DNA of 64,000 bases. It comes from a virus. The position numbers and the translations under genes are program-made. The first letter of the stretch is position 1. Every line of letters starts with the position of its first letter. The notes beneath the pieces were generated by a model. That model ran no database searches. It saw only the letters and a program-made list of their open reading frames with translations, and was not told the origin of the DNA. Below, piece after piece: positions 3,298 through 56,549 of this stretch. The DNA lies in IMG/VR virus record IMGVR_UViG_3300028844_004984; one strand, 5' to 3'.

Positions 3298-3331
3298 TTT
3301 GGATATTAAAAATAATTTTCGTATATTTATA
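3298..3331 (+). promoter_or_regulatory. Overlapping Bacteroidota-type promoter (TTTG-N20-TATATTTA) and late TATTTATA motif upstream of portal
   Basis: TTTG at 3298, TATATTTA at 3322, TATTTATA at 3324-3331. Confidence 0.55.
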
Positions 3332-6631: not shown

Positions 6632-6762
6632 GTTCTAAAAAGAAAATACTAAAAGAAGAACTCACAAATAAAGATTTGGAGAACATTCGTCTACTTATAA
6701 GATATGAGGTAGCACAAGTCATGTTTGACCTGTACAAAAAACGTAAAACTTGGGGAGCGTAA
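6628..6762 (+). CDS. Small hypothetical protein (44 aa), not in ORF track
   Basis: MSSKKKILKEELTNKDLENIRLLIRYEVAQVMFDLYKKRKTWGA; overlaps both neighbours (ATGA, TAATG). Confidence 0.65.
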   Translation: MSSKKKILKEELTNKDLENIRLLIRYEVAQVMFDLYKKRKTWGA

Positions 6763-7376
6763 TGGGTAAATTACTGATAGATACAATTCCATTTAAAATG
6801 AGTAAATCTCAAATCAACGAATCCATTAAAGAAAACAATGGTAGGTTGATTGTTGAGGGTGTACTACAACGCTCCGAAGCAGAAAATCAAAATGGCAGAA
6901 TCTATCCAACTGAAATTCTCAAAAGAGAAGTTAAGAAATATATGGGTAGAGAAGTTAAGGAGAGTAGAGCATATGGTGAACTCGACCATCCGGAATCTTC
7001 AGTTGTTGAGTTAAAGAATACATCACACATTGTTAGAGATGTTTGGTGGGATGGTAACGATGTAATGGGTAAAGTTGAAATCTTAAAAACACCAGCAGGT
7101 AACATCCTAAAAGAATTGTTGGAAGCTGGGTGTACTGTTGGTATCTCATCAAGAGGTATGGGTTCAGTTAAGGAATCTAACAATGGTGCTACTGTAACTG
7201 TAGAAGATGATTTTGATTTGATTTGTTGGGATTTTGTATCAAACCCATCAACACATGGTGCATTTATGAAACCAGTAAACGAGTCGGTGGGTTCTAAACC
7301 ACAACCATCGTATAAGAAAATAAATACATTAGTGAGAAATATCATCTGCGAAATCGATGGTGTTTGTTCAATATAA
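6762..7376 (+). CDS. Prohead core protease (T4 gp21-like)
   Basis: NQNGRIYP, GELDHP (His), GISSRGMGS (Ser), DFVSNPSTHGA. Confidence 0.95.
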   Translation: MGKLLIDTIPFKMSKSQINESIKENNGRLIVEGVLQRSEAENQNGRIYPTEILKREVKKYMGREVKESRAYGELDHPESSVVELKNTSHIVRDVWWDGNDVMGKVEILKTPAGNILKELLEAGCTVGISSRGMGSVKESNNGATVTVEDDFDLICWDFVSNPSTHGAFMKPVNESVGSKPQPSYKKINTLVRNIICEIDGVCSI

Positions 7377-7386
7377 GAGGAATATT

Positions 7387-9177
7387 ATGAAGTTAACTAA
7401 CCTATTAAATCTAAATGAAGCCAAATACGATATTGGTATGGCTCGTAAGGGTAATGGTATAACAGTATACAACCGAGCTGAAGAAGAGAGTGGTGATTAC
7501 AAAAATGTAGCACATATTGATTCTAAAGGTAAGGTAAAGTATTACGATAAAAAAGTACCATCTAACATTAAGAAACAAATCGAAGCTGAGGCTAAGAAGA
7601 TGGTGGAAATAACAAAAGAGGGAACTATGAAACTAAAAGATATATTAAAAGAATCATTTGAAAGTGGTAAAGTTTATTCAAACCCATTTCACACCCCATT
7701 CGTTAAAGAAAACGATGAAGAGAGAAGAGAAGAATCATCAGAGATGACTAACGAGCAAAAGATGGCATTTTTAGAAGCAGTTAAGGCATACAAATCATTT
7801 GGCGAAACTGTATATAGAAATGAAGGATTGGCTGAAGTTTATGAATCAATCAGAAACGTAGTAGAATCCGCTGGAAAAAATATGGTTAAAGAAACCGAAG
7901 GTTCTTTTGATGGTATTACAGTTGGTAGACACGTAAAGAGAATGAATGAATCATTTAAAATCTTTGAGAAAACTTTAAGAGAAGTTGGAACATTACAACA
8001 AAGATTAGAATCAACTTATGATGAGATTGGTGAAGTATTAGGAAAGTATTACGAAATCAGTGAAGTAGAAGAAAACGATATTGAAGAAGGTAATGAGTTT
8101 GGGGCTGCTAGAGCTAAAGCAATCGCAGCGGGTGATAGCGAATTCGAAGTAGATGGTAAGAAATATCCTGTAAAGGACGTTGATAAAGATGATAAAGAGA
8201 ACGCTAAAAAGTTCGCTAACGAATCTAAATCAATGAAACTTACTTCTATGTTAAAAGAAGGATTTGGTATTGGTGATTTACCATCATCTAAACTACCTAA
8301 GATGAAAATGAGTTTTGCAGAACTTATGAGCGAAGCTAAAAACGACGGTAACTTAGATACTATCGCTGATTATGTAAAACAAGTCTTAGATAGCGGTAAA
8401 TCATTTATGGATATCGGTAAAAAACTTAAAGGTGCATATAAGTATGATTTTAGTACCGGCATGATGCCGATGTATGTTATTCCAGTATCTGGAAATAAAA
8501 TTGTTATAATTAACAAAAAATACGTTGAAAAAGGACAAGCGGATAGAATCGTTGGTGATATTGCAATCGGCCTGATGGAAAATATCAAAAACGGATTAAC
8601 AACCGAAGGTAAAGATGATTTCAACGCAAGCTATTCTGGTGTGAACATCAACCTAAAGAAAGGTTATAAGAAACACAACGAAGATGATTTGATGAAACTA
8701 TATTCTGCACTCGGAAAGGCAATAAATCGTGTGAAGGGTGTGAAATCAGTTGAGGTTGTATTTGAAGGTGTAGTGAACGAAAGTAAGTACACTGTAATCA
8801 ACCCATCAAATGGTAACCCAATGGGTTTCGGCTCAAAAGCTCAAGCAGTTGCGATGGCTAAAAAGAAGGGTGGTAGTAAGAAGGGATTCTATGTAGTTCC
8901 ACAGAAGAACGCTTTGAAAGCCAGAAGAGCAATGGAAAAGCATCAGTTCAAAATGACATCTAAGTTAAAGGGTATTCTTGATAATTTGTACTACGAAAGT
9001 ACAATCGAACAACTTGTTGGTGAAGGAGCATCTACCGAAGAGAAGCGAATCGTTATGTTGGCAGTTAGAAAAATCGCTAAATACAGAAACGTTGATATCG
9101 AAACCGCAGCACTTGATGTGATGAGAGCAGCAAATGAGTTGGAAAGAGATATCAAAAAAGGTAAGGTAAAGAAATAA
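7387..9177 (+). CDS. Modular hypothetical protein, probable internal head polyprotein
   Basis: SD GAGG before ATG 7387; repeated MKL..(L/I)L.E segments and many x-x-E-(A/S/G) sites. Confidence 0.55.
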   Translation: MKLTNLLNLNEAKYDIGMARKGNGITVYNRAEEESGDYKNVAHIDSKGKVKYYDKKVPSNIKKQIEAEAKKMVEITKEGTMKLKDILKESFESGKVYSNPFHTPFVKENDEERREESSEMTNEQKMAFLEAVKAYKSFGETVYRNEGLAEVYESIRNVVESAGKNMVKETEGSFDGITVGRHVKRMNESFKIFEKTLREVGTLQQRLESTYDEIGEVLGKYYEISEVEENDIEEGNEFGAARAKAIAAGDSEFEVDGKKYPVKDVDKDDKENAKKFANESKSMKLTSMLKEGFGIGDLPSSKLPKMKMSFAELMSEAKNDGNLDTIADYVKQVLDSGKSFMDIGKKLKGAYKYDFSTGMMPMYVIPVSGNKIVIINKKYVEKGQADRIVGDIAIGLMENIKNGLTTEGKDDFNASYSGVNINLKKGYKKHNEDDLMKLYSALGKAINRVKGVKSVEVVFEGVVNESKYTVINPSNGNPMGFGSKAQAVAMAKKKGGSKKGFYVVPQKNALKARRAMEKHQFKMTSKLKGILDNLYYESTIEQLVGEGASTEEKRIVMLAVRKIAKYRNVDIETAALDVMRAANELERDIKKGKVKK

Positions 9178-9332
9178 TGGATAAGATTGAATTACTTCAG
9201 GAATTATCTGTTGAATTATCTCAAATGGTAAAGAAGCACATCAAACACATTAAGCAGTTAGATGGTAAGACCCAACGGCAATTAGGAAAGTTGATTGGTG
9301 ATTTCAAAGATGGTCTAGATGATATGAGCTAA
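9177..9332 (+). CDS. Small hypothetical protein (51 aa), not in ORF track
   Basis: TAATG coupling; MDKIELLQELSVELSQMVKKH... Confidence 0.6.
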   Translation: MDKIELLQELSVELSQMVKKHIKHIKQLDGKTQRQLGKLIGDFKDGLDDMS

Positions 9333-9358
9333 ACTTAACTTTATAAAAAATATTCAGA

Positions 9359-9366
9359 TATTTATA
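9359..9366 (+). promoter_or_regulatory. Putative late promoter TATTTATA upstream of bS21
   Basis: Exact octamer. Confidence 0.55.
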
Positions 9367-9400
9367 TACACCTATCGGTATTCGGTAGGTGTATTTTTTT
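9366..9400 (+). terminator. Intrinsic terminator-like hairpin
   Basis: ATACACCTATCG-GTATT-CGGTAGGTGTAT followed by a T-run. Confidence 0.65.
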
Positions 9401-9412
9401 AACATAGAATAT

Positions 9413-9664
9413 ATGCAGAATAACAAACCTTACAAAAAAGCAAAACGTGAAGATATGGATATTCCGGGTTGTGCTACAGGAGTTAGAGTAATTAATGGTA
9501 ACATTGAGTTGGCATTAAAAGTGTGGAAGCGTAAACTCAAAGATAGTAATAAGCTTGAAGAGTTGAAAGACCGTAAAGAATATACCAAACCAACTACTAA
9601 GCGTAGAAAGCAAAAGAAAGATGCCATCAGAGCAGAATGGCGTAGAAGAAACTACGAAATTTAA
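9413..9664 (+). CDS. rpsU: Phage-encoded 30S ribosomal protein bS21
   Basis: V.V.NGNIELALKVWKRK...LEELKDRKEYTKPTTKRR matches the bS21 signature. Confidence 0.88.
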   Translation: MQNNKPYKKAKREDMDIPGCATGVRVINGNIELALKVWKRKLKDSNKLEELKDRKEYTKPTTKRRKQKKDAIRAEWRRRNYEI

Positions 9665-9818
9665 TTGGTAAACACTTTTTTAGTGTTTTCAATTTTATTA
9701 CACTATTTATTGTAGATTATAATATCACCTCTAAATAGGTGGTTAAAATATTAGTATATAATATTCTATTAAGATTCTCAATAATCTTATTTCCAAAACA
9801 AATTTTAGGAGAACAATT

Positions 9819-10826
9819 ATGGCAAGAAGAAAAGACTTGTTATCTGAAGCTATCGCTGATGCAAAGGCCGTTAAAGAAACTGCTCTAGCAAATGCTAAGT
9901 TAGCTCTAGAAGAAGCGTTCACTCCAAAACTACAATCAATGATTTCTGCAAAGTTAGCTGAAGAAGCTGATGAAGAAGAAATAGACGAAGATTTGGATTC
10001 ATCTGATTTAGGTACTGGCGATAACGCTGAACCTGCTGATGATGCATCTGATTCCTCTGATATCGAAAACGAAGAAGAATTGACTGAAGAAGAGGACATG
10101 GACGAAGAAGAGGAAGAAGTATCTGAAGAAGAAAACACAGATGAAACCTACGGTGAAGGTGAAGAAGTGGATGAAGATGAAGATATGCATTCTGAAGAAG
10201 AAATGGGTGATGACATGGAAGATGATGATGAAGATGATTTAGATTTAGAATCTGTAATCGCTGAGTTAGAAGCTGAAATGGATGAAGAAGAAGCCCCAGC
10301 TGATGAAAACTATCACGAAGAAGAGGACATGGACGAGGAAGAGGACATGGACGAAGAAGAAGAAATCGATTTGGATGAAGTAATCAAAACTTTGAAAGAA
10401 ATGGAAGAGGGTGATTACAACGAAGAAGAGATGGATGAAGAAGAAGAGGTGGATGAAGAAGAAGATTTAGCAGGTGAATTAGAAGAAGCTTACAGCACAA
10501 TCGCATCATTGAAGGATACTATCAATGAAGTAAACTTGTTGAACGCTAAACTACTTTACACTAACAAATTATTCAGAACATTTGACTTGAACGAAAACCA
10601 AAAGGTAAAAGTTCTTGAAAACTTCGATAGAACATCTTCTGTAAGAGAAGTGAAGTTAGTTTTCTCAACTTTAGCTGAAAATTTAAATGTAGCTAAAAAG
10701 AAAAGAAGTGTTGTAAAAGAAGGATATGCTTCTAAAGCAACAAAGAGTTCAGCACCAAAGAAAGAAATTATTTCTGAAGGTAACGAGCTATCTGCTAGAT
10801 GGAAAAAGTTAGCAGGACTAAAATAA
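9819..10826 (+). CDS. Prohead core scaffolding protein (T4 gp22-like)
   Basis: Highly acidic; EAIADAKAVKETALANAK..LEEAF; immediately upstream of the capsid gene; SD AGGAG. Confidence 0.85.
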   Translation: MARRKDLLSEAIADAKAVKETALANAKLALEEAFTPKLQSMISAKLAEEADEEEIDEDLDSSDLGTGDNAEPADDASDSSDIENEEELTEEEDMDEEEEEVSEEENTDETYGEGEEVDEDEDMHSEEEMGDDMEDDDEDDLDLESVIAELEAEMDEEEAPADENYHEEEDMDEEEDMDEEEEIDLDEVIKTLKEMEEGDYNEEEMDEEEEVDEEEDLAGELEEAYSTIASLKDTINEVNLLNAKLLYTNKLFRTFDLNENQKVKVLENFDRTSSVREVKLVFSTLAENLNVAKKKRSVVKEGYASKATKSSAPKKEIISEGNELSARWKKLAGLK

Positions 10827-10851
10827 TAAATAAGATTCAAAGGAGAATAAA

Positions 10852-12489
10852 ATGAATTTATCAAACATCCTAAATGAAGGAACATCTCATCAGAAGAGAC
10901 TGTCTGAGGCAACTCGTGTACTCGCTTCAAAATGGGAAAAAACTGGTCTTCTTGAGGGTATTGCAAATGACGTTGAAAAAGCTGGCGTTGCAACTCTATT
11001 GGAAAACCAAGCTAAACAACTTGTAAAAGAGGCATCTTCTACAGGTACTTCAGCAAACTCAGAAGAGTGGGCTGGTGTTGCGTTACCATTGGTACGCAGA
11101 ATTTTTTCTGAAATTGTAGCTAAAGATTTCGTATCGGTTCAACCAATGAACCTACCATCGGGTCTTGTGTTCTACTTAGATTTCAAATATGGTACAGGTC
11201 AACCTGGTTTCGCTACCGGTAGCGGTAAAGATTCACAAGCTGATTCTGTATTCGGTGTTACTGAAACTACTGATGACCCATCAGGTGGTTTGTATGGAGC
11301 TGGTCGCTTTGGTTACACTATTAACGATAGTGTATCTGTTGCACAAACATTGGGTACTGCAGGCTCTAACAAATTCGTAACAGGTTCTGTTGCAGCTGTT
11401 GATTACAACTATGATACTAACTTCTCATCATCTTACGCACTTCAGATTGCTAGTGGTGAAGTATTTACTGCCGCTGTACCTACTGCATCTATCGCTGGAT
11501 TCGATGATAAAGGCATCAGAGCATTCAGAGTATCATCAGCTCAAGTAACTGACCAATTCCCACAATTCACTAAGTTGAGTGGTGGTGATGTTGAGTTTGT
11601 ATTGAGAGGTACATTAGATGCTACAGATGACTTGAGAGTAAAGTATCACAAACAACCAACTGATGTATCAAGAGGTGATTTCGAAGCTAGTGGTAACCAG
11701 TTAACTGGTAATCCAGAAGCAGCTCTTGATATTCCAGAATTGAACGTAGAGATGAAGTCCCTACCAATTGTTGCTAAGACACGTAAGTTGAAAGCACAAT
11801 GGACTCCAGAATTCGCTCAAGACTTGAACGCATATCACTCAATTGATGCTGAAGCTGAATTGACTTCAATGCTTTCTGAGTACATCTCACAAGAAATCGA
11901 TTTCGAAATTTTGGATATGTTGATTCAGGACGCTAAAACAGAAGGTTTCTGGTCAGCTCAAATCGGTAGAGAGTGGAATGGTAATAACTTCGGTAATTAC
12001 AATTCAACCCAATCTGCAGCTGCAGCATTTACTCAGCAAGCATGGTATCAGACACTTGGTACTGTAATTGCAGGTGTATCTAACAAAATTCACCAAAAAA
12101 CATTGCGTGGTGGTGCTAACTTCTTAGTAGTATCTCCTGATGTTGCCACTATCATCGAATCTATCCCAGGATACGCTTCGACTGCAGATAATGGTGATGC
12201 TCAATTCGCATTTGGTGTAACTAAAGTTGGTTCATTGAACAGCAGATTCCAAGTTTATAAGAATCCTTATATGAAAGAGAACGTAATCTTGATGGGTTAC
12301 AGAGGAACACAATTCCTTGAAACTGGTGCTGTATACGCTCCATATATCCCATTGATTATGACTCCGCTTGTATACGACCCTAAAAACTTCACTCCAAGAA
12401 AAGGTGTAATGACTCGTTACGCTAAGAAAATGTTGAGAGGTGAGTTCTACGGTAAGGTATATGTGGATGGCTTACACTTAATTCAGTAA
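10852..12489 (+). CDS. Major capsid protein (T4 gp23-like)
   Basis: VQPMNLPSGLVFYL, AKTRKLKAQWTPEFAQDLNAYH.IDAEAEL, YAPYIPL, MTRYA. Confidence 0.97.
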   Translation: MNLSNILNEGTSHQKRLSEATRVLASKWEKTGLLEGIANDVEKAGVATLLENQAKQLVKEASSTGTSANSEEWAGVALPLVRRIFSEIVAKDFVSVQPMNLPSGLVFYLDFKYGTGQPGFATGSGKDSQADSVFGVTETTDDPSGGLYGAGRFGYTINDSVSVAQTLGTAGSNKFVTGSVAAVDYNYDTNFSSSYALQIASGEVFTAAVPTASIAGFDDKGIRAFRVSSAQVTDQFPQFTKLSGGDVEFVLRGTLDATDDLRVKYHKQPTDVSRGDFEASGNQLTGNPEAALDIPELNVEMKSLPIVAKTRKLKAQWTPEFAQDLNAYHSIDAEAELTSMLSEYISQEIDFEILDMLIQDAKTEGFWSAQIGREWNGNNFGNYNSTQSAAAAFTQQAWYQTLGTVIAGVSNKIHQKTLRGGANFLVVSPDVATIIESIPGYASTADNGDAQFAFGVTKVGSLNSRFQVYKNPYMKENVILMGYRGTQFLETGAVYAPYIPLIMTPLVYDPKNFTPRKGVMTRYAKKMLRGEFYGKVYVDGLHLIQ

Positions 12490-12511
12490 TCATAACTGAA
12501 TTACAATAATT

Positions 12512-12537
12512 AAGGGGAGCTTCGGCTCCCCTTTTTT
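12512..12537 (+). terminator. Intrinsic terminator
   Basis: GGGGAGC-TTCG-GCTCCCC followed by TTTTTT. Confidence 0.9.
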
Positions 12538-12549
12538 ATGTCCATATGA

Positions 12550-12557
12550 TATTTATA
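12550..12557 (+). promoter_or_regulatory. Putative late promoter TATTTATA
   Basis: Exact octamer just after the terminator. Confidence 0.6.
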
Positions 12558-12589
12558 GTAAATGGTTACTTAATTTCTAAAAGGATAGT

Positions 12590-13249
12590 ATGGCAGACAA
12601 TATAAATAAAACTCCGCCGAAAGGGAACATTAGATTCTCAATCTCTTTATCAGAGGAACAAAAACAAGCAAAAGCACAAATTCTGACTCATCCCTTTAAT
12701 TTTGTTATAGGTAAGGCTGGTAGTGGTAAAACTCTATTGGCATGTCAAATTGGACTGGATATGTTTTTCAAACGACAGGTAAATAAAATCGTTATAACAC
12801 GACCAACTGTATCAAATGAAGATAATGGGTTTTTACCCGGCTCATTAGAAGAAAAAATGGAACCTTGGTTAGTGCCAATTAAATCTAATATGAGAAAGGT
12901 TTACAACAAACCTGCTATATTAGATAAAATGATTAGTGATGAAAAAATAGAATTGGTATCATTATCTCATTTTAGAGGAAGAACTTTTGAAAACTCAGTA
13001 TGTATAGTTGACGAGTTTCAAAACTTAACAAAGCAACAATTACTTATGGTGTTGGGTAGAGTGGGTAAAGGTTCTACTATGATTCTTTGTGGAGACAAGC
13101 AGCAAGTCGACTTAAAGTTTAACAATGATTCGGCAGTACATGAAGTTCCAAAACTAAAAGGTTCAAACTGGGTGTATGATGTAGTACTGCAAGATAATCA
13201 CAGACATGAATCATTAGATGAAATTTTAAAGTTACTTACTGATTATTGA
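12590..13249 (+). CDS. phoH: PhoH-family ATPase
   Basis: GKAGSGKT, ITRP, GFLPGSLEEKMEPW, FRGRTF, VDEFQN, GDKQQVD. Confidence 0.92.
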   Translation: MADNINKTPPKGNIRFSISLSEEQKQAKAQILTHPFNFVIGKAGSGKTLLACQIGLDMFFKRQVNKIVITRPTVSNEDNGFLPGSLEEKMEPWLVPIKSNMRKVYNKPAILDKMISDEKIELVSLSHFRGRTFENSVCIVDEFQNLTKQQLLMVLGRVGKGSTMILCGDKQQVDLKFNNDSAVHEVPKLKGSNWVYDVVLQDNHRHESLDEILKLLTDY

Positions 13250-24025: not shown

Positions 24026-25189
24026 ATGGCAGTAAATATTCCGATATGGCCAGGTTCATCATCGTTTTCGGAGGGTAGTACTCCATTTGGACACTACGAT
24101 ACTGATAATGAGTTCACATCATCAGCAGATAAGACTGCCGGTTGGTGCGCCAAACGTTTGGGGTATCCTATAGTTGATATTGAACTACAAGATATCAATT
24201 TTTATGCCTGTTTCGAAGAAGCGGTTACCGAATACTCATCTCAAGTCAATCAATTTAACATTAGAGAGAATCTACTTAATATTCGTGGTAACTCCACTGG
24301 TTCAAATCTGAGCCAGACTGAGTTGAACGCAAATTTAGGTGGAATTGTATCTCTCGCAAAAGATTATGGTACTGAAGCGGGTAGTGGTGGTAGAGTAACA
24401 TACTACACTGGTTCGTTTGTAATGAAATCAGGACAACAGGTCTATGATTTGACAGATACGGATTCGGTATCATTTGAAAGTGGTACGCCTGGAGTTGATA
24501 CCATAGAGATTAAGAAAGTACTACACACAGCTCCACCTGCGATGGTTAGATATTTTGACCCATTTGTAGGAACTGGATTGGGTTCGCAGCAAATGATGGA
24601 TACTTTTGGTTGGGGTAACTACTCACCGGGTGTATCGTTTATGATGCAACCACTTTACGATGATTTGTTAAGATTGCAGGCGATTGAGTTCAACGATTTA
24701 GTTCGTAAATCTCAATATGGGTTTGATTTAAAGAATGATAAGATACGAATCTTCCCAATTCCACAATATGGTGATAGGGGTACAAAAGTTCATTTCCACT
24801 ACATATTAGACTCGGAGCGTAGAGACCCAGTAGTTTCGAGGTCTGTTGTATCTGATTACTCAAATGCGAAGTATGATAGAATGGAGTACAAACACATTAA
24901 TCATGTTGGTAAACGGTGGGTTGAGAAGTACACATTGGCACTTGCCAAAGAAATGTTGGGTGCGGTTAGAGCTAAATTTAGTTCAGTTCCAATCCCAAAT
25001 TCGGAAATAACATTAGATGGGGCAGATTTAAGAAGTGAAGCGGCATCGGAAAAAGAAATCTTAATTTCAGAATTGAGAGAAAACTTAGAAGCTACTTCTA
25101 GAAAAGCATTGTTACAAGCACAGCAAGAAGAATCAGAAGCGATGGAGCAGACTCTTAACAGAGTCCCTCGTGCAATATATATAGGATAA
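24026..25189 (+). CDS. Neck protein (T4 gp13-like)
   Basis: RLGYPIVDIEL, WVEKYTLALAKEMLG..R.KF, TLDG..L..EA..EKE.L. Confidence 0.8.
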   Translation: MAVNIPIWPGSSSFSEGSTPFGHYDTDNEFTSSADKTAGWCAKRLGYPIVDIELQDINFYACFEEAVTEYSSQVNQFNIRENLLNIRGNSTGSNLSQTELNANLGGIVSLAKDYGTEAGSGGRVTYYTGSFVMKSGQQVYDLTDTDSVSFESGTPGVDTIEIKKVLHTAPPAMVRYFDPFVGTGLGSQQMMDTFGWGNYSPGVSFMMQPLYDDLLRLQAIEFNDLVRKSQYGFDLKNDKIRIFPIPQYGDRGTKVHFHYILDSERRDPVVSRSVVSDYSNAKYDRMEYKHINHVGKRWVEKYTLALAKEMLGAVRAKFSSVPIPNSEITLDGADLRSEAASEKEILISELRENLEATSRKALLQAQQEESEAMEQTLNRVPRAIYIG

Positions 25190-26956: not shown

Positions 26957-29317
26957 ATGGCAGAAAGAATAGTAAGTCCTGGCGTATTTACGAGAGAAAA
27001 GGACTTGTCATTTCTACCTCAAGGGATTGGTGAGATTGGCGCAGCGTTAATCGGTTCAACAGTTAAGGGACCGGCGTTTGTACCAACACAAGTAGAATCT
27101 TTTCAAGAGTTTCAACAAGTATTCGGTGGATTGACAGAAGATTCATATCTACCATATACCGCACAAGCTTATTTGGAAGATGCAGGAACTGCAACAATCG
27201 TTAGGGTATTAGGGCAAGATGGATACACTCTTGAAAATCCAGTGGCATTAACAGTATCATCATCGCATGGTAGTAAAGTAGTAGCAGTACTACATCCAAC
27301 AAATCAAATCACATCCGATACAGATGTGTTTGATGAAACTTTAATAGTAGACCACTTAGGGTCATCTGATGTAAGTGCATCACTATTTACACTAACATTA
27401 TCAGGTTCTGAAGCAGCTGATACTGATTTTTCAGCATCTTTGAATCCAACAAATGATAACTACTTCACTAAGCTATTTGGATTCGGACCAAGAGGTGGTG
27501 AAGAGGCATACGTTTACTCAAACTTCAAAACATTCCAATCAGCATCATTTGCAACTGGTGAAATTCCTGTAGTAACATTGGATGTTGCTAAAGATATTGA
27601 TTACACAAAAGCATATTCTGAGGCAAATACACCTTGGATTACATCACAAAAAGTTGGTGGAAACACAACAAACTTAATTAAGTTCCATACGCTATCACAT
27701 GGTACTGCAACTAACTATGAATTCAAAATTGGTATTCAGGATATTAAAGCAGCAGGTACTGTTGCGGGTTCTGAGTATGGTTCATTCTCAGTAGTTGTGA
27801 GAAGAGTAGACCAGGATAAAATAAATGGAACTCCATTTGTTGGGGTTGTTGATTCTGATATCAGACCTAACTTGATTGAAACATTCCAAAATGTAAATTT
27901 GGATCCTGATTCACCAAACTACATTGCTAGAGTAATTGGAGATAAGTACATCACTGTTGATGCTAATGGTAAATTATCAACCAATGGTGACTATCCAAAC
28001 AATTCAGCAAATGTTAGAGTTGAGGTTTCATCAGTTGTTGCTAACAAAGGTATTGACCAATCATTAGTTCCATTTGGATTTGCTAAATTACAGAACCCAT
28101 TCGGAACTGCATTTGCACTGCCAAACCCAACATATGTTGTATCACAATCAATCAATGAATCTTACAACGATAAGGCGTTTTTAGGTTATAATTTTGATTT
28201 CGCAACAACAGATAACTTAAATTTCTTATTACCAACACCAGATTCCGCAACTGCGACTGTAGGTGATGCATTCTACTTAGGAGATTGTCATGATAACACA
28301 GCAAACGCAGCCGTAGCATTGACTGGTACATTAAGTTCTAAAAAGTTCTTAGTACCCTTCCAAGGTGGTTTTGATGGATTTAAACCATCTAGAACTGTAT
28401 CGTTGGGTAACGATATTTTAGCAGGAAATTCACAAGGATATGATTTATCATCCAATACAGCGACTGGTACTGTAGCATACAGAAAAGCAATAAATGCTGT
28501 ATCTAATCCTGATGAATTTGATATTAATATGCTAGTTATTCCAGGCGCTATCCACAGATTACACTCTTCAGTAACAACATTTGCTAAAGATATGTGTGAG
28601 GATAGACAAGATACATTCTTCGTAATGGATTCAGCAGCGTATGGGGATAGTATTTCAACTACTACTAACACTGTTCAATCATTTGATTCGAACTATGTAG
28701 CTACATACTACCCTTGGGTTAAAATATTGAACACAGATAAGAATAAGCCGGTATGGGTTCCACCATCTGTAGTACTTCCGGGTGTTATAGCATTTAATGA
28801 CCAGGTTGCCGCTGAATGGTTTGCACCTGCTGGATTAAACAGAGGTGGGTTAACTTCAGTAATTGAAGCTAAAACCCGTTTGACTAGAACTGAAAGAGAT
28901 GATTTGTATGAGGGTAGAGTTAATCCAATCGCAACGTTCCCTGGTCAAGGTGTAACGGTATTTGGACAAAAAACACTACAGGCAAAACCATCGGCATTGG
29001 ATAGAATCAATGTAAGAAGATTGATGATTGCAGTGAAGAAGTTCATCGCATCTTCAACTCGTTACTTGGTGTTCGAAAACAATACAGCAGCTACGAGAAA
29101 TAGATTCTTATCAATCGTTAATCCTTACTTAGAATCAATCCAACAAAGGCAAGGTTTGTACGCATTCCGTGTGGTGATGGATGAGACTAACAATACACCG
29201 GATGTGATTGATAGAAACATTATGGTTGGTGAGATTTTCCTACAACCAGCGAAGACTGCAGAATTTATAGTTCTTGACTTTAATGTATTACCAACTGGGG
29301 CAGCGTTTCCAGAGTAA
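26957..29317 (+). CDS. Contractile tail sheath protein (T4 gp18-like)
   Basis: SPGVFTREKD, WFAPAGLNRG, FGQKTLQ..SALDRINVRRL, FENN, PAKTAEFI. Confidence 0.96.
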   Translation: MAERIVSPGVFTREKDLSFLPQGIGEIGAALIGSTVKGPAFVPTQVESFQEFQQVFGGLTEDSYLPYTAQAYLEDAGTATIVRVLGQDGYTLENPVALTVSSSHGSKVVAVLHPTNQITSDTDVFDETLIVDHLGSSDVSASLFTLTLSGSEAADTDFSASLNPTNDNYFTKLFGFGPRGGEEAYVYSNFKTFQSASFATGEIPVVTLDVAKDIDYTKAYSEANTPWITSQKVGGNTTNLIKFHTLSHGTATNYEFKIGIQDIKAAGTVAGSEYGSFSVVVRRVDQDKINGTPFVGVVDSDIRPNLIETFQNVNLDPDSPNYIARVIGDKYITVDANGKLSTNGDYPNNSANVRVEVSSVVANKGIDQSLVPFGFAKLQNPFGTAFALPNPTYVVSQSINESYNDKAFLGYNFDFATTDNLNFLLPTPDSATATVGDAFYLGDCHDNTANAAVALTGTLSSKKFLVPFQGGFDGFKPSRTVSLGNDILAGNSQGYDLSSNTATGTVAYRKAINAVSNPDEFDINMLVIPGAIHRLHSSVTTFAKDMCEDRQDTFFVMDSAAYGDSISTTTNTVQSFDSNYVATYYPWVKILNTDKNKPVWVPPSVVLPGVIAFNDQVAAEWFAPAGLNRGGLTSVIEAKTRLTRTERDDLYEGRVNPIATFPGQGVTVFGQKTLQAKPSALDRINVRRLMIAVKKFIASSTRYLVFENNTAATRNRFLSIVNPYLESIQQRQGLYAFRVVMDETNNTPDVIDRNIMVGEIFLQPAKTAEFIVLDFNVLPTGAAFPE

Positions 29318-29419: not shown

Positions 29420-29908
29420 ATGGCACAATTATTAGACCCAACTGAAGTAATGTTCACATCATTCGAACCGAAGATGTCGAACCGCTTTATTATGTATGTA
29501 GAAGGAATTCCGGCATATTTAATTAAAGCAGCCAACAGACCTGAGATAACCAATGGTAAAGTTACCGTTGACCATATCAATGTAAGACGATATGTAAAAG
29601 GAAGAAGTGAGTGGAGTGATTTGAGTATTTCATTATACGACCCAGTAGTTCCATCAGCAGCGCAAGCAGCAATGGAGTGGGTAAGACTACACCACGAATC
29701 GGTAACTGGTCGTGATGGATACTCTGATTTCTACAAAAAAGATATCACATTCAATAGTTTGGGTCCTGTTGGTGATAAAGTAGAAGAGTGGACACTTAAA
29801 GGAGCTTACATTCAGACAGCAAAATTCTCAGATATGGATTACACTGGTGAAGATTTAGCAACCGTAGATTTAACACTTACATACGATTACGCAATACTAC
29901 AATACTAA
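29420..29908 (+). CDS. Tail tube protein (T4 gp19-like)
   Basis: Follows the sheath; NRF, W..LSISLYD, YKKDI, EEWTLKGA, LTYD. Confidence 0.9.
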   Translation: MAQLLDPTEVMFTSFEPKMSNRFIMYVEGIPAYLIKAANRPEITNGKVTVDHINVRRYVKGRSEWSDLSISLYDPVVPSAAQAAMEWVRLHHESVTGRDGYSDFYKKDITFNSLGPVGDKVEEWTLKGAYIQTAKFSDMDYTGEDLATVDLTLTYDYAILQY

Positions 29909-40403: not shown

Positions 40404-40423
40404 CAAATAATTTTGTATATTTG
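40392..40423 (+). promoter_or_regulatory. Bacteroidota sigma70-type promoter (perfect consensus); likely leaderless transcript
   Basis: TTTG-N20-TATATTTG; ATG 4 nt downstream. Confidence 0.75.
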
Positions 40424-40427
40424 ATGT

Positions 40428-41690
40428 ATGGTTGAATTTCTTAGTGAAGGAAGTATATCTATAAACAAAGTATATATTCATCCCGTTTGGGAGAGTATAT
40501 CGGTACACCCACATAATGATGGGTTATCGTTGTTGTATATATATGATATAGAATCCGATAGGGAAATTGTAATCAACCTAAAAAACATCGATATACATAT
40601 AACCTCTTTGGAGAAGTTTAAGTTTCTATTTAAAGAGGCTTATGTGTACGATAACAAATCGTTGATGAATCACATTCAGATTCCAAATTCATATGATGCA
40701 AGTTTGGTTAAGTACTTACAATCGAACCACCCATTGGAATCGAAACTAACTCCAACACATACATTCTATCAACGTAGGTTCAGTAACCTAAAGGGAGTAA
40801 ACAATCTTATTCCAATCTCTAAACATATAGAATCCATCAGAGATACAAAAGATGAATTCATAGAGTATTACGATTTGGGCGGGGGAGAGTTCGATTGTGT
40901 GAAGAAATTTGAAAATTTCTATATCAAGCCACTTCACAAAGTAGAAAAGAATGGAATCAAAACCGAAGGGGGTATGGAGTGGACTCAGTATCACCCATTC
41001 ACTATCACATCACGACCTTCAAACAATTATGGTGGGGTAAATTATGCGGCATTGAATAAAGATGATGGGAGTAGGGATAGATTCGTAAGTAGGTTCAAAG
41101 GGGGGAAGTTGATTCAATTTGATTATGATGCATATCACCCTCGTATCATTGGTAAAATGGTAGATGAACCTATTCCAATAGATATAAGCGGTCACCAAGC
41201 ACTTGCCGATATGTATGGTGTATCCTATGGTGAATCAAAGGGAATTACGTTCCGACAACTATATGGTGGGGTACAATCGGAATATCTACATATTCCGTTG
41301 TTTTCCAAAGTTTCACACAAAATTGATTTGATGTGGATGGAATTCAATCGTAGGGGATATATTAAAACGCCATTGGGTAGGAGATTATCAAAGAGTAGTT
41401 TGAAAGATATGAATGCCAACAAACTATTCAACTATTTACTCCAAGCAACAGAAACGGAGTTGAATATGAGAATACTAACTAAGGTGGTAGACTTTTTAAA
41501 AGATAAGAAGTCCAAAATGGTTTTATACACTTATGATTCATATTTATTGGATATACATCCCGATGAAGTTAGTATTTTACAGAATTTAAAGATACTTATA
41601 GAAGGGAATGGATTCCCTGCAAAAATGGAAATTGGAGATAGATATTCTGAAATGAAATCTACAGATATTGAAACACTGGATATAGTATGA
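40428..41690 (+). CDS. Compact, divergent family A DNA polymerase-like protein
   Basis: TSRPSN, motif A FDYDAYHPR, motif B SKGITFRQLYG, NYLLQATE, motif C YTYDS. Confidence 0.8.
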   Translation: MVEFLSEGSISINKVYIHPVWESISVHPHNDGLSLLYIYDIESDREIVINLKNIDIHITSLEKFKFLFKEAYVYDNKSLMNHIQIPNSYDASLVKYLQSNHPLESKLTPTHTFYQRRFSNLKGVNNLIPISKHIESIRDTKDEFIEYYDLGGGEFDCVKKFENFYIKPLHKVEKNGIKTEGGMEWTQYHPFTITSRPSNNYGGVNYAALNKDDGSRDRFVSRFKGGKLIQFDYDAYHPRIIGKMVDEPIPIDISGHQALADMYGVSYGESKGITFRQLYGGVQSEYLHIPLFSKVSHKIDLMWMEFNRRGYIKTPLGRRLSKSSLKDMNANKLFNYLLQATETELNMRILTKVVDFLKDKKSKMVLYTYDSYLLDIHPDEVSILQNLKILIEGNGFPAKMEIGDRYSEMKSTDIETLDIV

Positions 41691-48172: not shown

Positions 48173-48204
48173 TTTGGTAAATACAATAATAATTCGTATA
48201 TTTA
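48173..48204 (+). promoter_or_regulatory. Bacteroidota-type promoter; likely leaderless transcript
   Basis: TTTG-N20-TATATTTA; ATG 4 nt downstream. Confidence 0.7.
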
Positions 48205-48208
48205 ATCT

Positions 48209-49567
48209 ATGGATAAACTTGGAAATAAGTTTGGAACAAGCTTTCAGATAAAGATTATATCAGCACTATTATCCGATAGGATATTTTTACAAACGGTGTA
48301 CGATATACTCAAACCTGAGATGTTCGATTCTGAGGCAAATGAGTGGCTTGTAACCAAAACGTTATCACACTTTGATGTATACTCAACGTTACCAACATTA
48401 GATGTATTTAAAAACGAAGTAGATAGGGTTGAGAGGGATGTTCTTAAACAATCTATCGTAGATAACCTAAAGCAAGTTTGGAATCAATTAGAATCTGATG
48501 ATTTAAATTACGTTAAAGAGCAAACCTTAGAGTTCTGTAAGAATCAAACATTTAAGAGTGCTATCTTAGAATCGGTTGGACTGTTAGAAGAAGGGAAGTT
48601 TGATGTAATAAAATCTAAGATTGATTCCGCTATGAAAGCGGGGCAGGATACCGATATTGGACACGAATATAAGGAGAATATCATTGAAAGGTATGAATCT
48701 ACAGTTAGAGATGTAATCTCTTGTGGATGGGATGTGATTGATGAATTGGTAGATGGTGGGTTTGGTAAAGGTGAACTTATTATGTTCGCAGCACCACCGG
48801 GTATTGGTAAATCTTGGGCATTGGTAAATGTTGGAATGGCTGCTGCTAAAAAAGGTAAGACTGTAGTTCACTACACATTGGAGTTGAATGAGGGATACGT
48901 GGGTCAGAGATACGATGCAGTATTAACTGGAACTGCTGTACCTAACCTTAAATTTAATATCGATGATGTACGAACTCAAGTGGAAGGGCTGAGTGGTGAT
49001 ATCATTGTGAAACATTGGCCTACTAAATCTGCTGGATTGAATACTATGAGAGCATCATTAGATAAACTGAAGTTGCAAGGTAAGAATCCTGATGTGATTA
49101 TAGTAGATTACGCTGATTTGTTAAAGGGTAATAGTAGAAAAGAACGACACGAAGAGTTAGAAGAGATTGTAGAGGGATTGAGAGGCATCGCGGGTGAATA
49201 TGAAGTTCCATTATTTACAGCATCTCAAATCAATCGTAGTGGTGCTAATGATGATGTTATTACTGGTACTTCTATAGCTGGCTCATTCTCAAAATTGATG
49301 ACTGCAGATTTTGTAGTTTCATTGAGTAGAAAAATTGAGGATAAGTTAGCTGGAACAGGCAGATGGCACGTTATCAAAAACCGATTTGGACCAGATGGTA
49401 TGACTTTACCTTCAAAAGCTAATATGAGTAATGGTAGAATCAATATATATTCCGATGATTCCATTGATGGTAAACAAGCACAAAGTGATATGTCAAAGGG
49501 GGAGAGTTTGGTAAGAAAGAATTTGTTACAAAAATATAATGATATGAAGGGGGATATTGACTTCTAA
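48209..49567 (+). CDS. Replicative DnaB-like helicase (T4 gp41-like)
   Basis: APPGIGKS, YTLEL, IVDYADL, TASQINR, KNRFG. Confidence 0.93.
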   Translation: MDKLGNKFGTSFQIKIISALLSDRIFLQTVYDILKPEMFDSEANEWLVTKTLSHFDVYSTLPTLDVFKNEVDRVERDVLKQSIVDNLKQVWNQLESDDLNYVKEQTLEFCKNQTFKSAILESVGLLEEGKFDVIKSKIDSAMKAGQDTDIGHEYKENIIERYESTVRDVISCGWDVIDELVDGGFGKGELIMFAAPPGIGKSWALVNVGMAAAKKGKTVVHYTLELNEGYVGQRYDAVLTGTAVPNLKFNIDDVRTQVEGLSGDIIVKHWPTKSAGLNTMRASLDKLKLQGKNPDVIIVDYADLLKGNSRKERHEELEEIVEGLRGIAGEYEVPLFTASQINRSGANDDVITGTSIAGSFSKLMTADFVVSLSRKIEDKLAGTGRWHVIKNRFGPDGMTLPSKANMSNGRINIYSDDSIDGKQAQSDMSKGESLVRKNLLQKYNDMKGDIDF

Positions 49568-52658: not shown

Positions 52659-52671
52659 TTTTGTATATTAG
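52640..52671 (+). promoter_or_regulatory. Bacteroidota-type promoter; likely leaderless transcript
   Basis: TTTG-N20-TATATTAG; ATG 5 nt downstream. Confidence 0.65.
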
Positions 52672-52676
52672 TAGTT

Positions 52677-53111
52677 ATGAAAGAAGTATTAAATAAACTA
52701 AAAGAGTTTCACTCAACGTATGGGCACCCAATCGAATTAGAGCCCACAGCTCAAACAGAAGAAATGGCTGAGTTGAGATACAAATTGGCAAAAGAAGAGT
52801 TAGATGAGTATTTGGAGGCAAATCAAAACGATGACCCTATTGAAATAGCAGATGCACTAGCTGACCAGTTGTATATTTTGTTGGGAACAATGTTGGTTCA
52901 CGGAATGCATGATGTTATCGAAGATGTGTTCAATGAAGTACATCGTTCCAATATGTCAAAGTTAGGTGAAGATGGTAACCCCATCTATCGTGATGACGGT
53001 AAGGTTATGAAAGGACCAAACTACACTAAACCAGAATTGGGTAGTATTATATCAAACGTTTGGAAAGAGAAACGAGCTCAGTTAAACATTCCGTTTAATG
53101 AGGAAGTTTAG
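52677..53111 (+). CDS. MazG-like (DR2231/PRA-PH type) dNTP pyrophosphohydrolase
   Basis: EELDEY, EIADALADQLY, EVHRSNMSK, DGKVMKG. Confidence 0.87.
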   Translation: MKEVLNKLKEFHSTYGHPIELEPTAQTEEMAELRYKLAKEELDEYLEANQNDDPIEIADALADQLYILLGTMLVHGMHDVIEDVFNEVHRSNMSKLGEDGNPIYRDDGKVMKGPNYTKPELGSIISNVWKEKRAQLNIPFNEEV

Positions 53112-55412: not shown

Positions 55413-56546
55413 ATGAACTTTTGGGATAGTGTAGATTATAACAATGCTAGAAAGGTGTTGGTGATACCTAATATCACTAACTCTTCTAATATTGAAAAAG
55501 ATTCGTTTATTGATGTGATACATAATCATATCAAAGGACTGGAGAAGTATGGTGAGTACTATTGGCATGTTTTAGTACCAACTGGAAATGTTACGAAGAA
55601 ACTAAACTTACCAAATGTGAAACAACATCAGATTGATATTCCAGGTGATATGATGAACCAACGTTCGTTCCCATCTGATAAGTTGATGAAACTTCTAAAG
55701 GATATCGATTATGATGTAATCTATTCACACCTGCCCGATTGGCCTCAAGTCGGTAGATACAAAAACGATATCAACACTAAAATAGTTGGGTATTGCCATT
55801 GGTGGGAAATGAAGTCCTGTAATGGTGTAGACCGTAGACCTGGTAAAGCAAAGTGGTTGTGGTTACCCATCGAACTATTAGGTATATCTCAGATGGAAAC
55901 CTGTTACTTAAATACACAAGACCAGAAGAATAGGGTGTTGGAAGAGGCGAGAGAAACATTCAATGAAGAGTTTGTTCAGAAGTTGGATGATATTCTCACT
56001 GTTTGGAACTTAGGATTGGAAGAATCCAAAATAGTATCCGAACCAAAATCAGAAAAGGAAAAGGTGATTGTATTCAACCACCGAGCAGCTGCATACAAGG
56101 GGTATCCTAAGTTTATGGAGTTGATGGAAGAATATCGTAAACAGCGACAGGATTTCAAAGTTTGGATTCCGCAATTAAATGGTAAACCACCATATGGGTG
56201 GGTAGATACTACCAAAGTACCAAAGCATGAGTACTATAAGAGATTGCAGGATTGTACCGTCGGTGTACAGATGAGGCAAACGAATTATGGTTGGAGCGTG
56301 AGTGGTACTGATTGTATGATGAATGGAACTCCAATGATTTGGCAGGAATCCGATTGTTATCACGAAATCGACCCGAATGGTATGTTCTTCAAATACAAAA
56401 AAGAATTCTTTGAGTATTTGGATAAGATGTTAGATGATGAACCATTCCGAAAAGAGCAAGAGTTAAAATCAGTAGAGAGGGCAAACGAGCTATCTAAGAA
56501 TGAGGGTAAAATGCTTGGAGAACTACACAAAAAGTTGTATATTTAA
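55413..56546 (+). CDS. GT-B glycosyltransferase, candidate DNA glycosyltransferase
   Basis: DYDVIYSH, VFNHR..YKGY, EYY..L, GWSVSGTDCMMNGTP; located next to PolB. Confidence 0.75.
   Translation: MNFWDSVDYNNARKVLVIPNITNSSNIEKDSFIDVIHNHIKGLEKYGEYYWHVLVPTGNVTKKLNLPNVKQHQIDIPGDMMNQRSFPSDKLMKLLKDIDYDVIYSHLPDWPQVGRYKNDINTKIVGYCHWWEMKSCNGVDRRPGKAKWLWLPIELLGISQMETCYLNTQDQKNRVLEEARETFNEEFVQKLDDILTVWNLGLEESKIVSEPKSEKEKVIVFNHRAAAYKGYPKFMELMEEYRKQRQDFKVWIPQLNGKPPYGWVDTTKVPKHEYYKRLQDCTVGVQMRQTNYGWSVSGTDCMMNGTPMIWQESDCYHEIDPNGMFFKYKKEFFEYLDKMLDDEPFRKEQELKSVERANELSKNEGKMLGELHKKLYI
56514..56545 (+). promoter_or_regulatory. Bacteroidota-type promoter; likely leaderless transcript
   Basis: CTTG-N20-TATATTTA; ATG 4 nt downstream. 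Confidence 0.65.
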
Positions 56547-56549
56547 GGT

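Follow-up and report, generated by a model that had tools for sequence, protein, structure and literature searches.

Ribosomes of the Bacteroidia are blind to the Shine-Dalgarno (SD) signal. Ribosomal protein bS21, which is loosely bound to the 30S subunit and exchangeable, controls that blindness. Here we analyse a 64,000-nucleotide stretch of virus DNA (IMG/VR record IMGVR_UViG_3300028844_004984, hereafter the window) that encodes a bS21 of its own (rpsU, positions 9413-9664) among the head genes of a T4-like phage, and we compare its SD sites with those of related phages.

The location of phage bS21 genes beside head genes, their late expression and the idea of a ribosome takeover are already published (PMC9723584, PMC6375957). 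Chen et al. 2022 described bS21 myoviruses of freshwater Bacteroidetes (PMC9723584) in which bS21, as in the window, belongs to the head module, with the protease and capsid genes only a few genes away. The gene is co-expressed with late structural genes and Bacteroidota hosts were predicted. We share the proposal of these authors that phage bS21 substitutes into host ribosomes and favours phage mRNAs. Their study contains no SD analysis and thus names no mRNA feature that would confer the selectivity. The two sets of phages differ in other respects. Residue 54 is aromatic in 61/61 of the phage bS21 proteins of Chen et al., which are said to work like the host protein, whereas it is Arg in the window. 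Their bS21 gene occupies the reverse strand, whereas the window rpsU shares the strand of its neighbours, and their phages are from freshwater, whereas the window lineage is marine with a genome of about 176 kb.

In Flavobacterium johnsoniae, autoregulation of rpsU involves this ribosomal site too, and whether SDs are read depends on the bS21 status of the 30S subunit (Jha 2021 PMC7797042; McNutt 2023 PMC9976891; Arpin 2026 PMC13000457). Tyr54 of Bacteroidia bS21 stacks on A1534 (PMC7797042), loss of bS21 or a Y54A change raises translation of SD-led reporters 1.7- to 5-fold (PMC9976891), and opening of the platform pocket by mutation releases the 3' tail (PMC13000457). One host gene, rpsU itself, has an SD that bS21-lacking ribosomes read as negative feedback. 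The phage arrangement is different: rpsU lacks an SD, canonical SDs of short length stand before dozens of late genes, and the proposal is that a variant bS21 enables their reading and does not block it. The F. johnsoniae work provides both a biochemical basis and existing reporters for the phage bS21 idea.

Pelagibacter phage HTVC008M (Mizuno et al. 2019, PMC6375957) is likewise T4-like and marine and encodes a bS21 that enters ribosomes, for which competition with host bS21 was suggested; entry of a pelagiphage bS21 into E. coli ribosomes is described in that work. It differs in its alphaproteobacterial host, in having acquired the gene from that host and in lacking any link to an SD-blind host. 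Flavobacterium phage vB_FspM_immuto (MW353176) has the same head-gene order as the window, similar late and early motifs, a protein with a type IX secretion system (T9SS) tag and a capsid protein 56% identical to that of the window. Unlike the window, it has no bS21 in its genome, and 0/17 of its head-region genes are SD-led.

bS21 carriage and SD-led genes among related phages

We fetched 160 IMG/VR loci with the capsid proteins of the window and immuto (80 kept of more than 599 matches per query) and analysed them together with immuto, Microcystis phage Mel-JY01 and the window. Genes were called from the first ATG of each open reading frame (ORF), identically for all groups and blind to SDs. 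SD strength was scored as the free energy (dG, in kcal/mol) of pairing between the anti-SD (ACCUCCUU) and positions -20 to -4. A bS21 gene occurs in 73 of the analysed loci, always in the slot between protease and scaffold. The column of Tyr54 holds Arg in 35 of these proteins, Tyr in 32, Phe in five and Lys in one. The groups compare as follows.

Arg-type loci: n = 36, mean dG -3.70, 29% SD-led genes, capsid-gene dG -5.6
Tyr/Phe-type loci: n = 37, mean dG -3.23, 25% SD-led genes, capsid-gene dG -5.5
Loci with no bS21 and at least 5 kb upstream covered: n = 49, mean dG -0.15, 3.6% SD-led genes, capsid-gene dG +1.6

GC content is equal in the three groups. Nearly every bS21-bearing relative has an SD before its capsid gene, and no bS21-less relative has one there. 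Furthermore, GGAG/GAGG peaks at -11 in the bS21 phages (28% of 920 non-redundant gene starts within -15 to -8), and no such peak exists among 687 gene starts of bS21-less phages. The association of bS21 with SDs has a p of 2e-19 by a statistic that ignores phylogeny.

On the capsid tree, the immuto clade (36 rows), which lacks bS21, and the bS21 clade (69 rows) are sisters. Two loci nested in the bS21 clade (L116 and L134; 3300022752_000210 and 3300010158_000271) keep the protease-scaffold-capsid order without rpsU and without SDs. These two losses included, all 38 bS21-less relatives on the tree are SD-free. Complete bS21 genomes carry exactly one copy each. In one complete genome (G312), bS21 is absent throughout and SD-led genes make up 1.3%. 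We conclude that bS21 carriage and SD-led genes co-occur among approximately 120 related phages. In the closest near-complete relative (G303), 30% of the genes behind late motifs are SD-led, versus 4% of those behind early motifs.

Among 56 non-redundant relatives, the phage rpsU has no SD of its own in 51 (mean dG +0.67). Host rpsU genes often have an extended SD, in agreement with earlier work (PMC7797042), with several loci scoring -12 to -17 against a 13-nt tail. The phage design is thus the opposite of the host design, as would be expected if unmodified ribosomes must read the phage gene.

The coupling of bS21 and SDs is not universal across phage lineages: as a general predictor, bS21 was checked in three huge phages, in which 0%, 2% and 17% of the genes near the bS21 gene are SD-led. 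The last value, from the 40 kb surrounding the gene, belongs to a 735-kb uncultured phage (L297, LR756501) with a host-like bS21 that ends in ..KAIYIQ and has no extension.

SD sites within the window

All large ORFs of the window are on the + strand. Pfam and PHROG matches identify positions 1 to approximately 40,100 as a T4-like structural module, which is followed by a replication module. The features used below are these.

1726, + strand: TerL, structural module
3362, + strand: portal, structural module
6762-7376, + strand: gp21-type prohead protease (Pfam Peptidase_S77, E 1.3e-36; PHROG 207), with GGGGAG 4 nt before the ATG, SD dG -6.7
7387-9177, + strand: head-module protein of about 600 aa (606 aa), SD-led by AGAGGA, SD dG -5.8, with same-slot homologues in relatives
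9358-9366, + strand: late-type promoter motif ATATTTATA upstream of rpsU
9366-9401, + strand: hairpin and T-run overlapping the late motif, with a 13-pair stem (terminator scan), dG -16.7, z -4.7
9413-9664, + strand: rpsU, phage bS21 of 83 aa (Pfam Ribosomal_S21, PHROG 21469)
9663-9694, + strand: hairpin then U-rich run, a possible terminator directly after rpsU, dG -9.6, z -4.1
9807-9811, + strand: SD AGGAG, 7 nt before the scaffold ATG, dG -7.3
9819-10826, + strand: acidic, Asp/Glu-rich scaffold-like gene at the gp22 position between protease and capsid gene, with a same-slot homologue in relatives
10840-10845, + strand: SD AAGGAG, 6 nt before the capsid ATG, dG -8.0
10852-12489, + strand: gp23-type major capsid protein (Pfam Gp23, E 1.2e-78)
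12590, + strand: PhoH, structural module
24026-25189, + strand: head-tail adaptor (neck) gene (PHROG 211) behind a late motif, SD AAGGAG, dG -7.9
26957-29317, + strand: tail sheath gene (PHROG 23, E 2.4e-72) behind a late motif, SD TAGGAG, dG -7.3
29420-29908, + strand: tail tube gene (PHROG 4542) behind a late motif, SD CGGAG, dG -6.1

GGAG/GAGG occurs at -17 to -5 before 12 of the 38 structural-module genes and 3 of the 26 replication-module genes, and before 5.4% of internal ATGs. The mean dG values are -3.5, -1.7 and -2.0 kcal/mol, respectively (late versus early, Mann-Whitney p 0.003). This enrichment bears out a first-pass annotation of the window, made from the sequence alone, which had described clear SDs before structural genes. 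Each of the sites that it named is present: AGGAG before the scaffold gene, AAGGAG before the capsid gene and 24026, TAGGAG before the sheath gene, and GAGG before 7387 and 18568. The protease start at 6762 was preferred by eye to a TTG at 6750, and the start at 7387 was likewise placed by eye; the SD bias has the same direction in the automated first-ATG analysis.

The SD-led genes of the window encode high-copy virion proteins. TerL and portal have no SD, and no gene that immediately follows an early-type promoter is SD-led. The rpsU gene also lacks an SD (dG +0.2), including the strong extended SD typical of many Flavobacteriales, and its start region is unstructured (fold -1.1 kcal/mol). 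A search of the window for an extended SD without a start codon that could act as a decoy found none (58 matches versus 52 expected).

The phage bS21 protein

The rpsU product (P0001) matches Pfam Ribosomal_S21 (PF01165) over residues 24-74 with 39.4 bits (cut-off 27, E 4.8e-10), and bS21 chains in the PDB from E 8.8e-5. It has an N-terminal extension of approximately 20 aa. An AlphaFold2 model (pLDDT 78.8) predicts helices at residues 31-52 and 60-82. Foldseek returned no significant match to this model, with mitochondrial bS21 chains alone at E 0.27 and TM 0.41.

The Arg and Tyr/Phe types of phage bS21 share two features. Both possess an N-terminal extension of about 13-23 residues that is Lys-rich and often ends in (I/V)PG, and both have a C-terminal tail that is more basic than that of Tyr54 hosts. 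The net charge over the 22 residues after the KP(S/T) anchor is +5.2 to +5.3 in the phage proteins, versus +3.0 to +3.4 in Tyr54 hosts (n = 6 and 8) and +8.7 in Proteobacteria, the host samples being small. The low-basic C-terminal trait of Bacteroidia bS21 is thus absent from the phage proteins. Phylogenetically, extended phage bS21 forms one clade apart from all sampled bacterial bS21 (SH-like approximate likelihood ratio test 97). No phage copy of bS18 or bS6 was found; of the bS21/bS18/bS6 pocket, these phages encode bS21 alone.

Tyr or Arg at position 54

The first-pass annotation had placed an Arg at the Tyr54 position and proposed that the phage bS21 frees the anti-SD for late phage mRNAs. 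The placement is correct. In phmmer alignments, residues 29-73 pair without a gap with residues 10-54 of a Bacteroidia bS21 (9i5v_9, ending in ..KAIY), and residues 29-71 pair with 10-52 of F. johnsoniae bS21 (7jil_z). Arg73 thus occupies the column of the Bacteroidia signature Tyr54, and it is kept in 12/12 close homologues.

We nevertheless think it very improbable that this single Tyr54-to-Arg change in phage bS21 is responsible for making the anti-SD available to SD-led late mRNAs. The invariance of Arg73 in the close family fits the idea, the Y54A change on its own gives a 1.7- to 3-fold higher output of SD reporters in F. johnsoniae (PMC9976891), and Arg-type loci are slightly more SD-rich (-3.70 versus -3.23, p 0.016, uncorrected). 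However, phages with Tyr/Phe-type bS21 are coupled to SDs nearly as strongly, so the change is not the switch itself. The tree order, with the Tyr/Phe type basal and the Arg type nested within the extended phage clade, indicates that Arg arose in a family already coupled to SD-led genes. One locus inside the Arg clade (L069, IMGVR_UViG_3300025806_000133, bS21 at 2589-2843, capsid 84% identical) has Tyr and 39% SD-led genes, and is a natural revertant or recombinant. The locus L119 has Arg and no SDs.

Bacteria also speak against a decisive role of the residue. Bacteroidota classes with a single Arg54 bS21 are SD-poor (8-12%) and have a strong SD on their own rpsU, from which it follows that Arg54 alone does not imply a free anti-SD; sequestration in these bacteria may proceed without Tyr54. 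SD use thus tracks carriage of the extended phage bS21 family rather than residue 54. Of the ribosome switch originally proposed for the window, the gene, the motif, Arg73 and the late SDs stand, and Tyr-to-Arg as the switch does not. The Arg-for-Tyr54 change probably weakens sequestration of the tail further without being required, and may add to the effect because Y54A gives the rise cited above.

In a 151-genome sample of the phylum Bacteroidota, approximately half of the bS21 genes that were read have Arg at position 54 (L008-L020, L276-L293). They occur in two forms, a Balneolota-type and one ending in ..KAIRRAQR. Both Balneolota-type genomes examined are SD-poor, and a strong SD precedes rpsU at the loci examined in either form. 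These observations hint at anti-SD sequestration and rpsU autoregulation without Tyr54 in Arg54 Bacteroidota.

Promoters and hairpins around rpsU

The late motif ATATTTATA occurs 12 times in the window versus 2.3 expected, always on the + strand and 11 times in the structural module. It is also found 5' of rpsU in 16 non-redundant relatives. Given its likeness to T4-type late promoters, it probably acts as a late promoter, and rpsU indeed lies between head genes behind such a motif, as first annotated. The hairpin and T-run directly after the motif are conserved in the Arg clade, with compensatory arm changes in L074, L077, L085 and L083/84. We infer that this hairpin (9366-9401) is a terminator for upstream read-through that overlaps the late promoter, with its 5' arm at or before the late start site, and that rpsU is an insulated late unit. 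Transcripts from the late promoter would start inside the 5' arm and would therefore escape termination. The hairpin after rpsU (9663-9694) contains too few G-C pairs to be called by a consensus terminator scan. In the Tyr clade, a host-type TTTG...TTATATTA promoter stands before rpsU in place of a late motif and hairpin.

The early motif TTGG-N17-22-GTATATT has eight copies in the window versus 0.36 expected, all on the + strand and seven of the eight in the replication module. Its layout (TTTG, about 20 nt, TAtaTT(T/G)) fits the Bacteroidota sigma-A promoter, with a consensus of -33 TTTG and -7 TANNTTTG (PMC6847099), though the final G is frequently absent. A strong strand bias of the motif is seen in bS21-bearing genomes and likewise in one bS21-less genome of the lineage. 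Two examples of early promoters are the following.

40404-40427, + strand: early, host-type promoter, with a -7-like box TATATTTG at 40416-40423, which is followed 4 nt later by the ATG of a gene without an SD
48174-48208, + strand: early-type promoter preceding the SD-less gene of a DnaB-like helicase

The box at 40416-40423 has no TTGG half, lies outside the eight counted motifs and was identified by reading the sequence. Reported distances between promoter box and transcription start in F. johnsoniae are 4-5 nt. In the window, a -7-like box ends 4-5 nt before the ATG at 40416-40430, 48196-48211, 52663-52679 and 56537-56552, ahead of genes for PolA-like, DnaB-like helicase, MazG and PolB, respectively. 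Given the F. johnsoniae spacing, these mRNAs would be leaderless or nearly so. At the portal gene, an early-type promoter overlaps a late motif at 3299-3331 (TTGG...TTCGTATATTTATA), and gp32 (45233) likewise has both kinds. Portal and gp32 may thus be expressed in two phases.

Host of the phages

Several features make the Bacteroidota host suggested in the first-pass annotation plausible. The early-promoter layout is of the Bacteroidota kind, and immuto, the nearest cultured relative with a firm host, was isolated on Flavobacterium. C-terminal sorting domains of the T9SS, a secretion tag of Bacteroidota, occur in two Arg-type relatives (G306, G307), in the bS21-less G312 and in immuto. On these grounds the host is probably a member of the Bacteroidota.

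Likeness of bS21 itself was rejected as host evidence. Samples of Bacteroidota and Pseudomonadota give equally weak best matches (E about 1e-7), the best Bacteroidota matches are Balneolota-type, and the tree sets the phage family apart from all bacteria. A scan of genome contigs with the family alignment found two weak bacterial relatives alone, in metagenome-assembled genomes of a gammaproteobacterium and of a member of the Saprospiraceae. A pelagiphage (SAR11) host had been suspected from marine homologues and was dropped given the capsid relatives, the promoters and the T9SS domains.

Host identity also enters a rival explanation, in which the bS21 clade infects natively SD-reading bacteria, the bS21-less clade infects SD-blind Bacteroidia, and bS21 only tops up or mimics the host protein. 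As bS21 changes only twice on the tree, both traits together might be explained by a host shift. The Arg type is similar to non-Bacteroidia bS21, the bS21 tree fixes no donor, and Mel-JY01, the one cultured bS21-bearing relative, is recorded on Microcystis. However, the early genes and rpsU of these phages avoid SDs, which would be odd in an SD-reading host, and the early-promoter layout is common to bS21-bearing and bS21-less genomes. T9SS cargo domains occur in Arg-type relatives, and Tyr/Phe-type bS21 has the Bacteroidia signature in phages that are still SD-rich. The sampled Tyr54 and Arg54 Bacteroidota genomes are both SD-poor, with 5-12% SD-led genes versus 22% in one proteobacterium by crude gene calls. 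We therefore regard a host difference as improbable.

Mel-JY01 (L002, PP395634) has a cyanobacterial record, yet it falls inside an otherwise Bacteroidota-linked clade. Its bS21 is shorter, with Lys in the Tyr54 column, its rpsU is SD-led, and it has no T9SS domain.

Proposed exchange of bS21 in host ribosomes

Our preferred explanation, which we consider an evenly balanced prospect, is that extended phage bS21 takes the place of host bS21 in 30S subunits and causes host ribosomes to read SD-led late mRNAs. The source would be a T4-like phage of about 176 kb infecting marine Bacteroidota, whose native ribosomes would hide the 16S anti-SD tail and ignore SDs. Early genes and rpsU, with SD-less A/U-rich start regions and several early genes nearly leaderless, could be used by unmodified host ribosomes. 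The rpsU gene would be transcribed as its own small late unit between hairpins, and its product, with its N-terminal extension and more basic C-terminal helix, would replace host bS21 in 30S subunits. Subunits with the exchanged protein would have an accessible anti-SD and could preferentially initiate the SD-led virion mRNAs (protease, scaffold, capsid, adaptor, sheath, tube and fibres) over SD-less host mRNAs. In a fuller form that we put forward tentatively, extended phage bS21 would be a dedicated ribosome-conversion subunit that turns SD-blind ribosomes into SD-reading ones, opening a private late initiation channel and a translational early-to-late switch.

A number of observations weigh against this exchange. 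The presence of bS21 changes only twice on the capsid tree, and the data thus offer no more than two independent contrasts, which agree in direction. Carriage is insufficient, as L119, L136 and L211/L224 have bS21 and few SDs, and two huge phages with host-like, unextended bS21 are SD-poor near the gene. Tyr/Phe54 phage bS21 retains a residue that helps to sequester the tail. Among protein features, none was found that predicts SD strength: N-extension length has a rho of -0.12 and the PG motif has no correlation. A clash between bS21 and a long SD-anti-SD helix occurs in F. johnsoniae (PMC13000457). The rpsU gene is late here, so a switch would act only as its product accumulates. Finally, the assignment to a Bacteroidota host is itself indirect.

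Some of these points would fit an alternative in which another factor unlocks the SDs, such as depletion of host bS21 after shut-off or another phage product, with the two traits linked by shared lineage. This we consider unlikely. Phage bS21 would then have some other role, for example to keep ribosomes complete and active late in infection or to counter a translation-stalling defence, which we find equally doubtful. F. johnsoniae ribosomes without bS21 already prefer SD-led mRNA (PMC9976891), a counter-defence role was proposed by Chen et al. 2022 (PMC9723584), the insufficiency of carriage agrees with a second factor, and the Tyr-type copies look competent to sequester the tail. On the other side stand the SD-free state of 38/38 bS21-less relatives on the capsid tree, including the two nested losses, and the consistently SD-less phage rpsU beside SD-led neighbours. 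Furthermore, no second factor was found: bS18 and bS6 are absent, and the window holds no extended SD decoy.

Gene content of the window

The window carries a T4-like myovirus set that comprises the gp23 capsid, gp21-type protease, gp20-type portal, sheath, tube and a gp32/UvsX/gp43/gp44-62 replisome. The order of the head module (protease, 606-aa protein, rpsU, scaffold, capsid) fits the bS21 phages of Chen et al. 2022. Neither the 606-aa protein nor the scaffold-like gene (9819-10826) has a family match in Pfam or PHROG. A 51-aa ORF also lies between protease and rpsU (window 7387-9332); it too has same-slot homologues in relatives and no family match. The capsid protein is 60% identical to that of Mel-JY01. 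After the adaptor, sheath and tube genes, fibre genes complete the structural module.

The replication module (40,400-64,000) encodes gp32, UvsX, RNase H, a DnaB-like helicase, ribonucleotide reductase, MazG, two Mom-like proteins, PolB and a clamp loader. No tRNA genes were found in the window. Cultured-phage records gave no match to positions 6700-12600 by megablast or to P0001 by tblastn (E 1e-3). Metagenome contigs as long as 176 kb carry the exact P0001 sequence, whose homologues are of marine origin.

Implications

bS21 is by far the most frequent phage-encoded ribosomal protein (PMC6375957, PMC9976891). The reason for its carriage has stayed a guess, namely that it favours phage mRNAs, for want of any known mRNA feature able to confer selectivity. 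Among the papers searched, we found none that connects phage bS21 with SD-led genes. Within one large lineage of phages, bS21 carriage and late-gene SDs appear and disappear together while early genes and rpsU stay SD-less, and this coupling gives a testable reason for a phage-encoded bS21. For gene calling, it means that phages of SD-poor hosts cannot safely be assumed to be SD-free. The proposed exchange is directly testable with the existing F. johnsoniae reporters and mutant strains and with cryo-EM. If true, a virus would re-specify the initiation mode of its host's ribosomes by swapping one small protein. This would be a natural example of specialised ribosomes and would explain why bS21 is the ribosomal protein that aquatic phages carry most.

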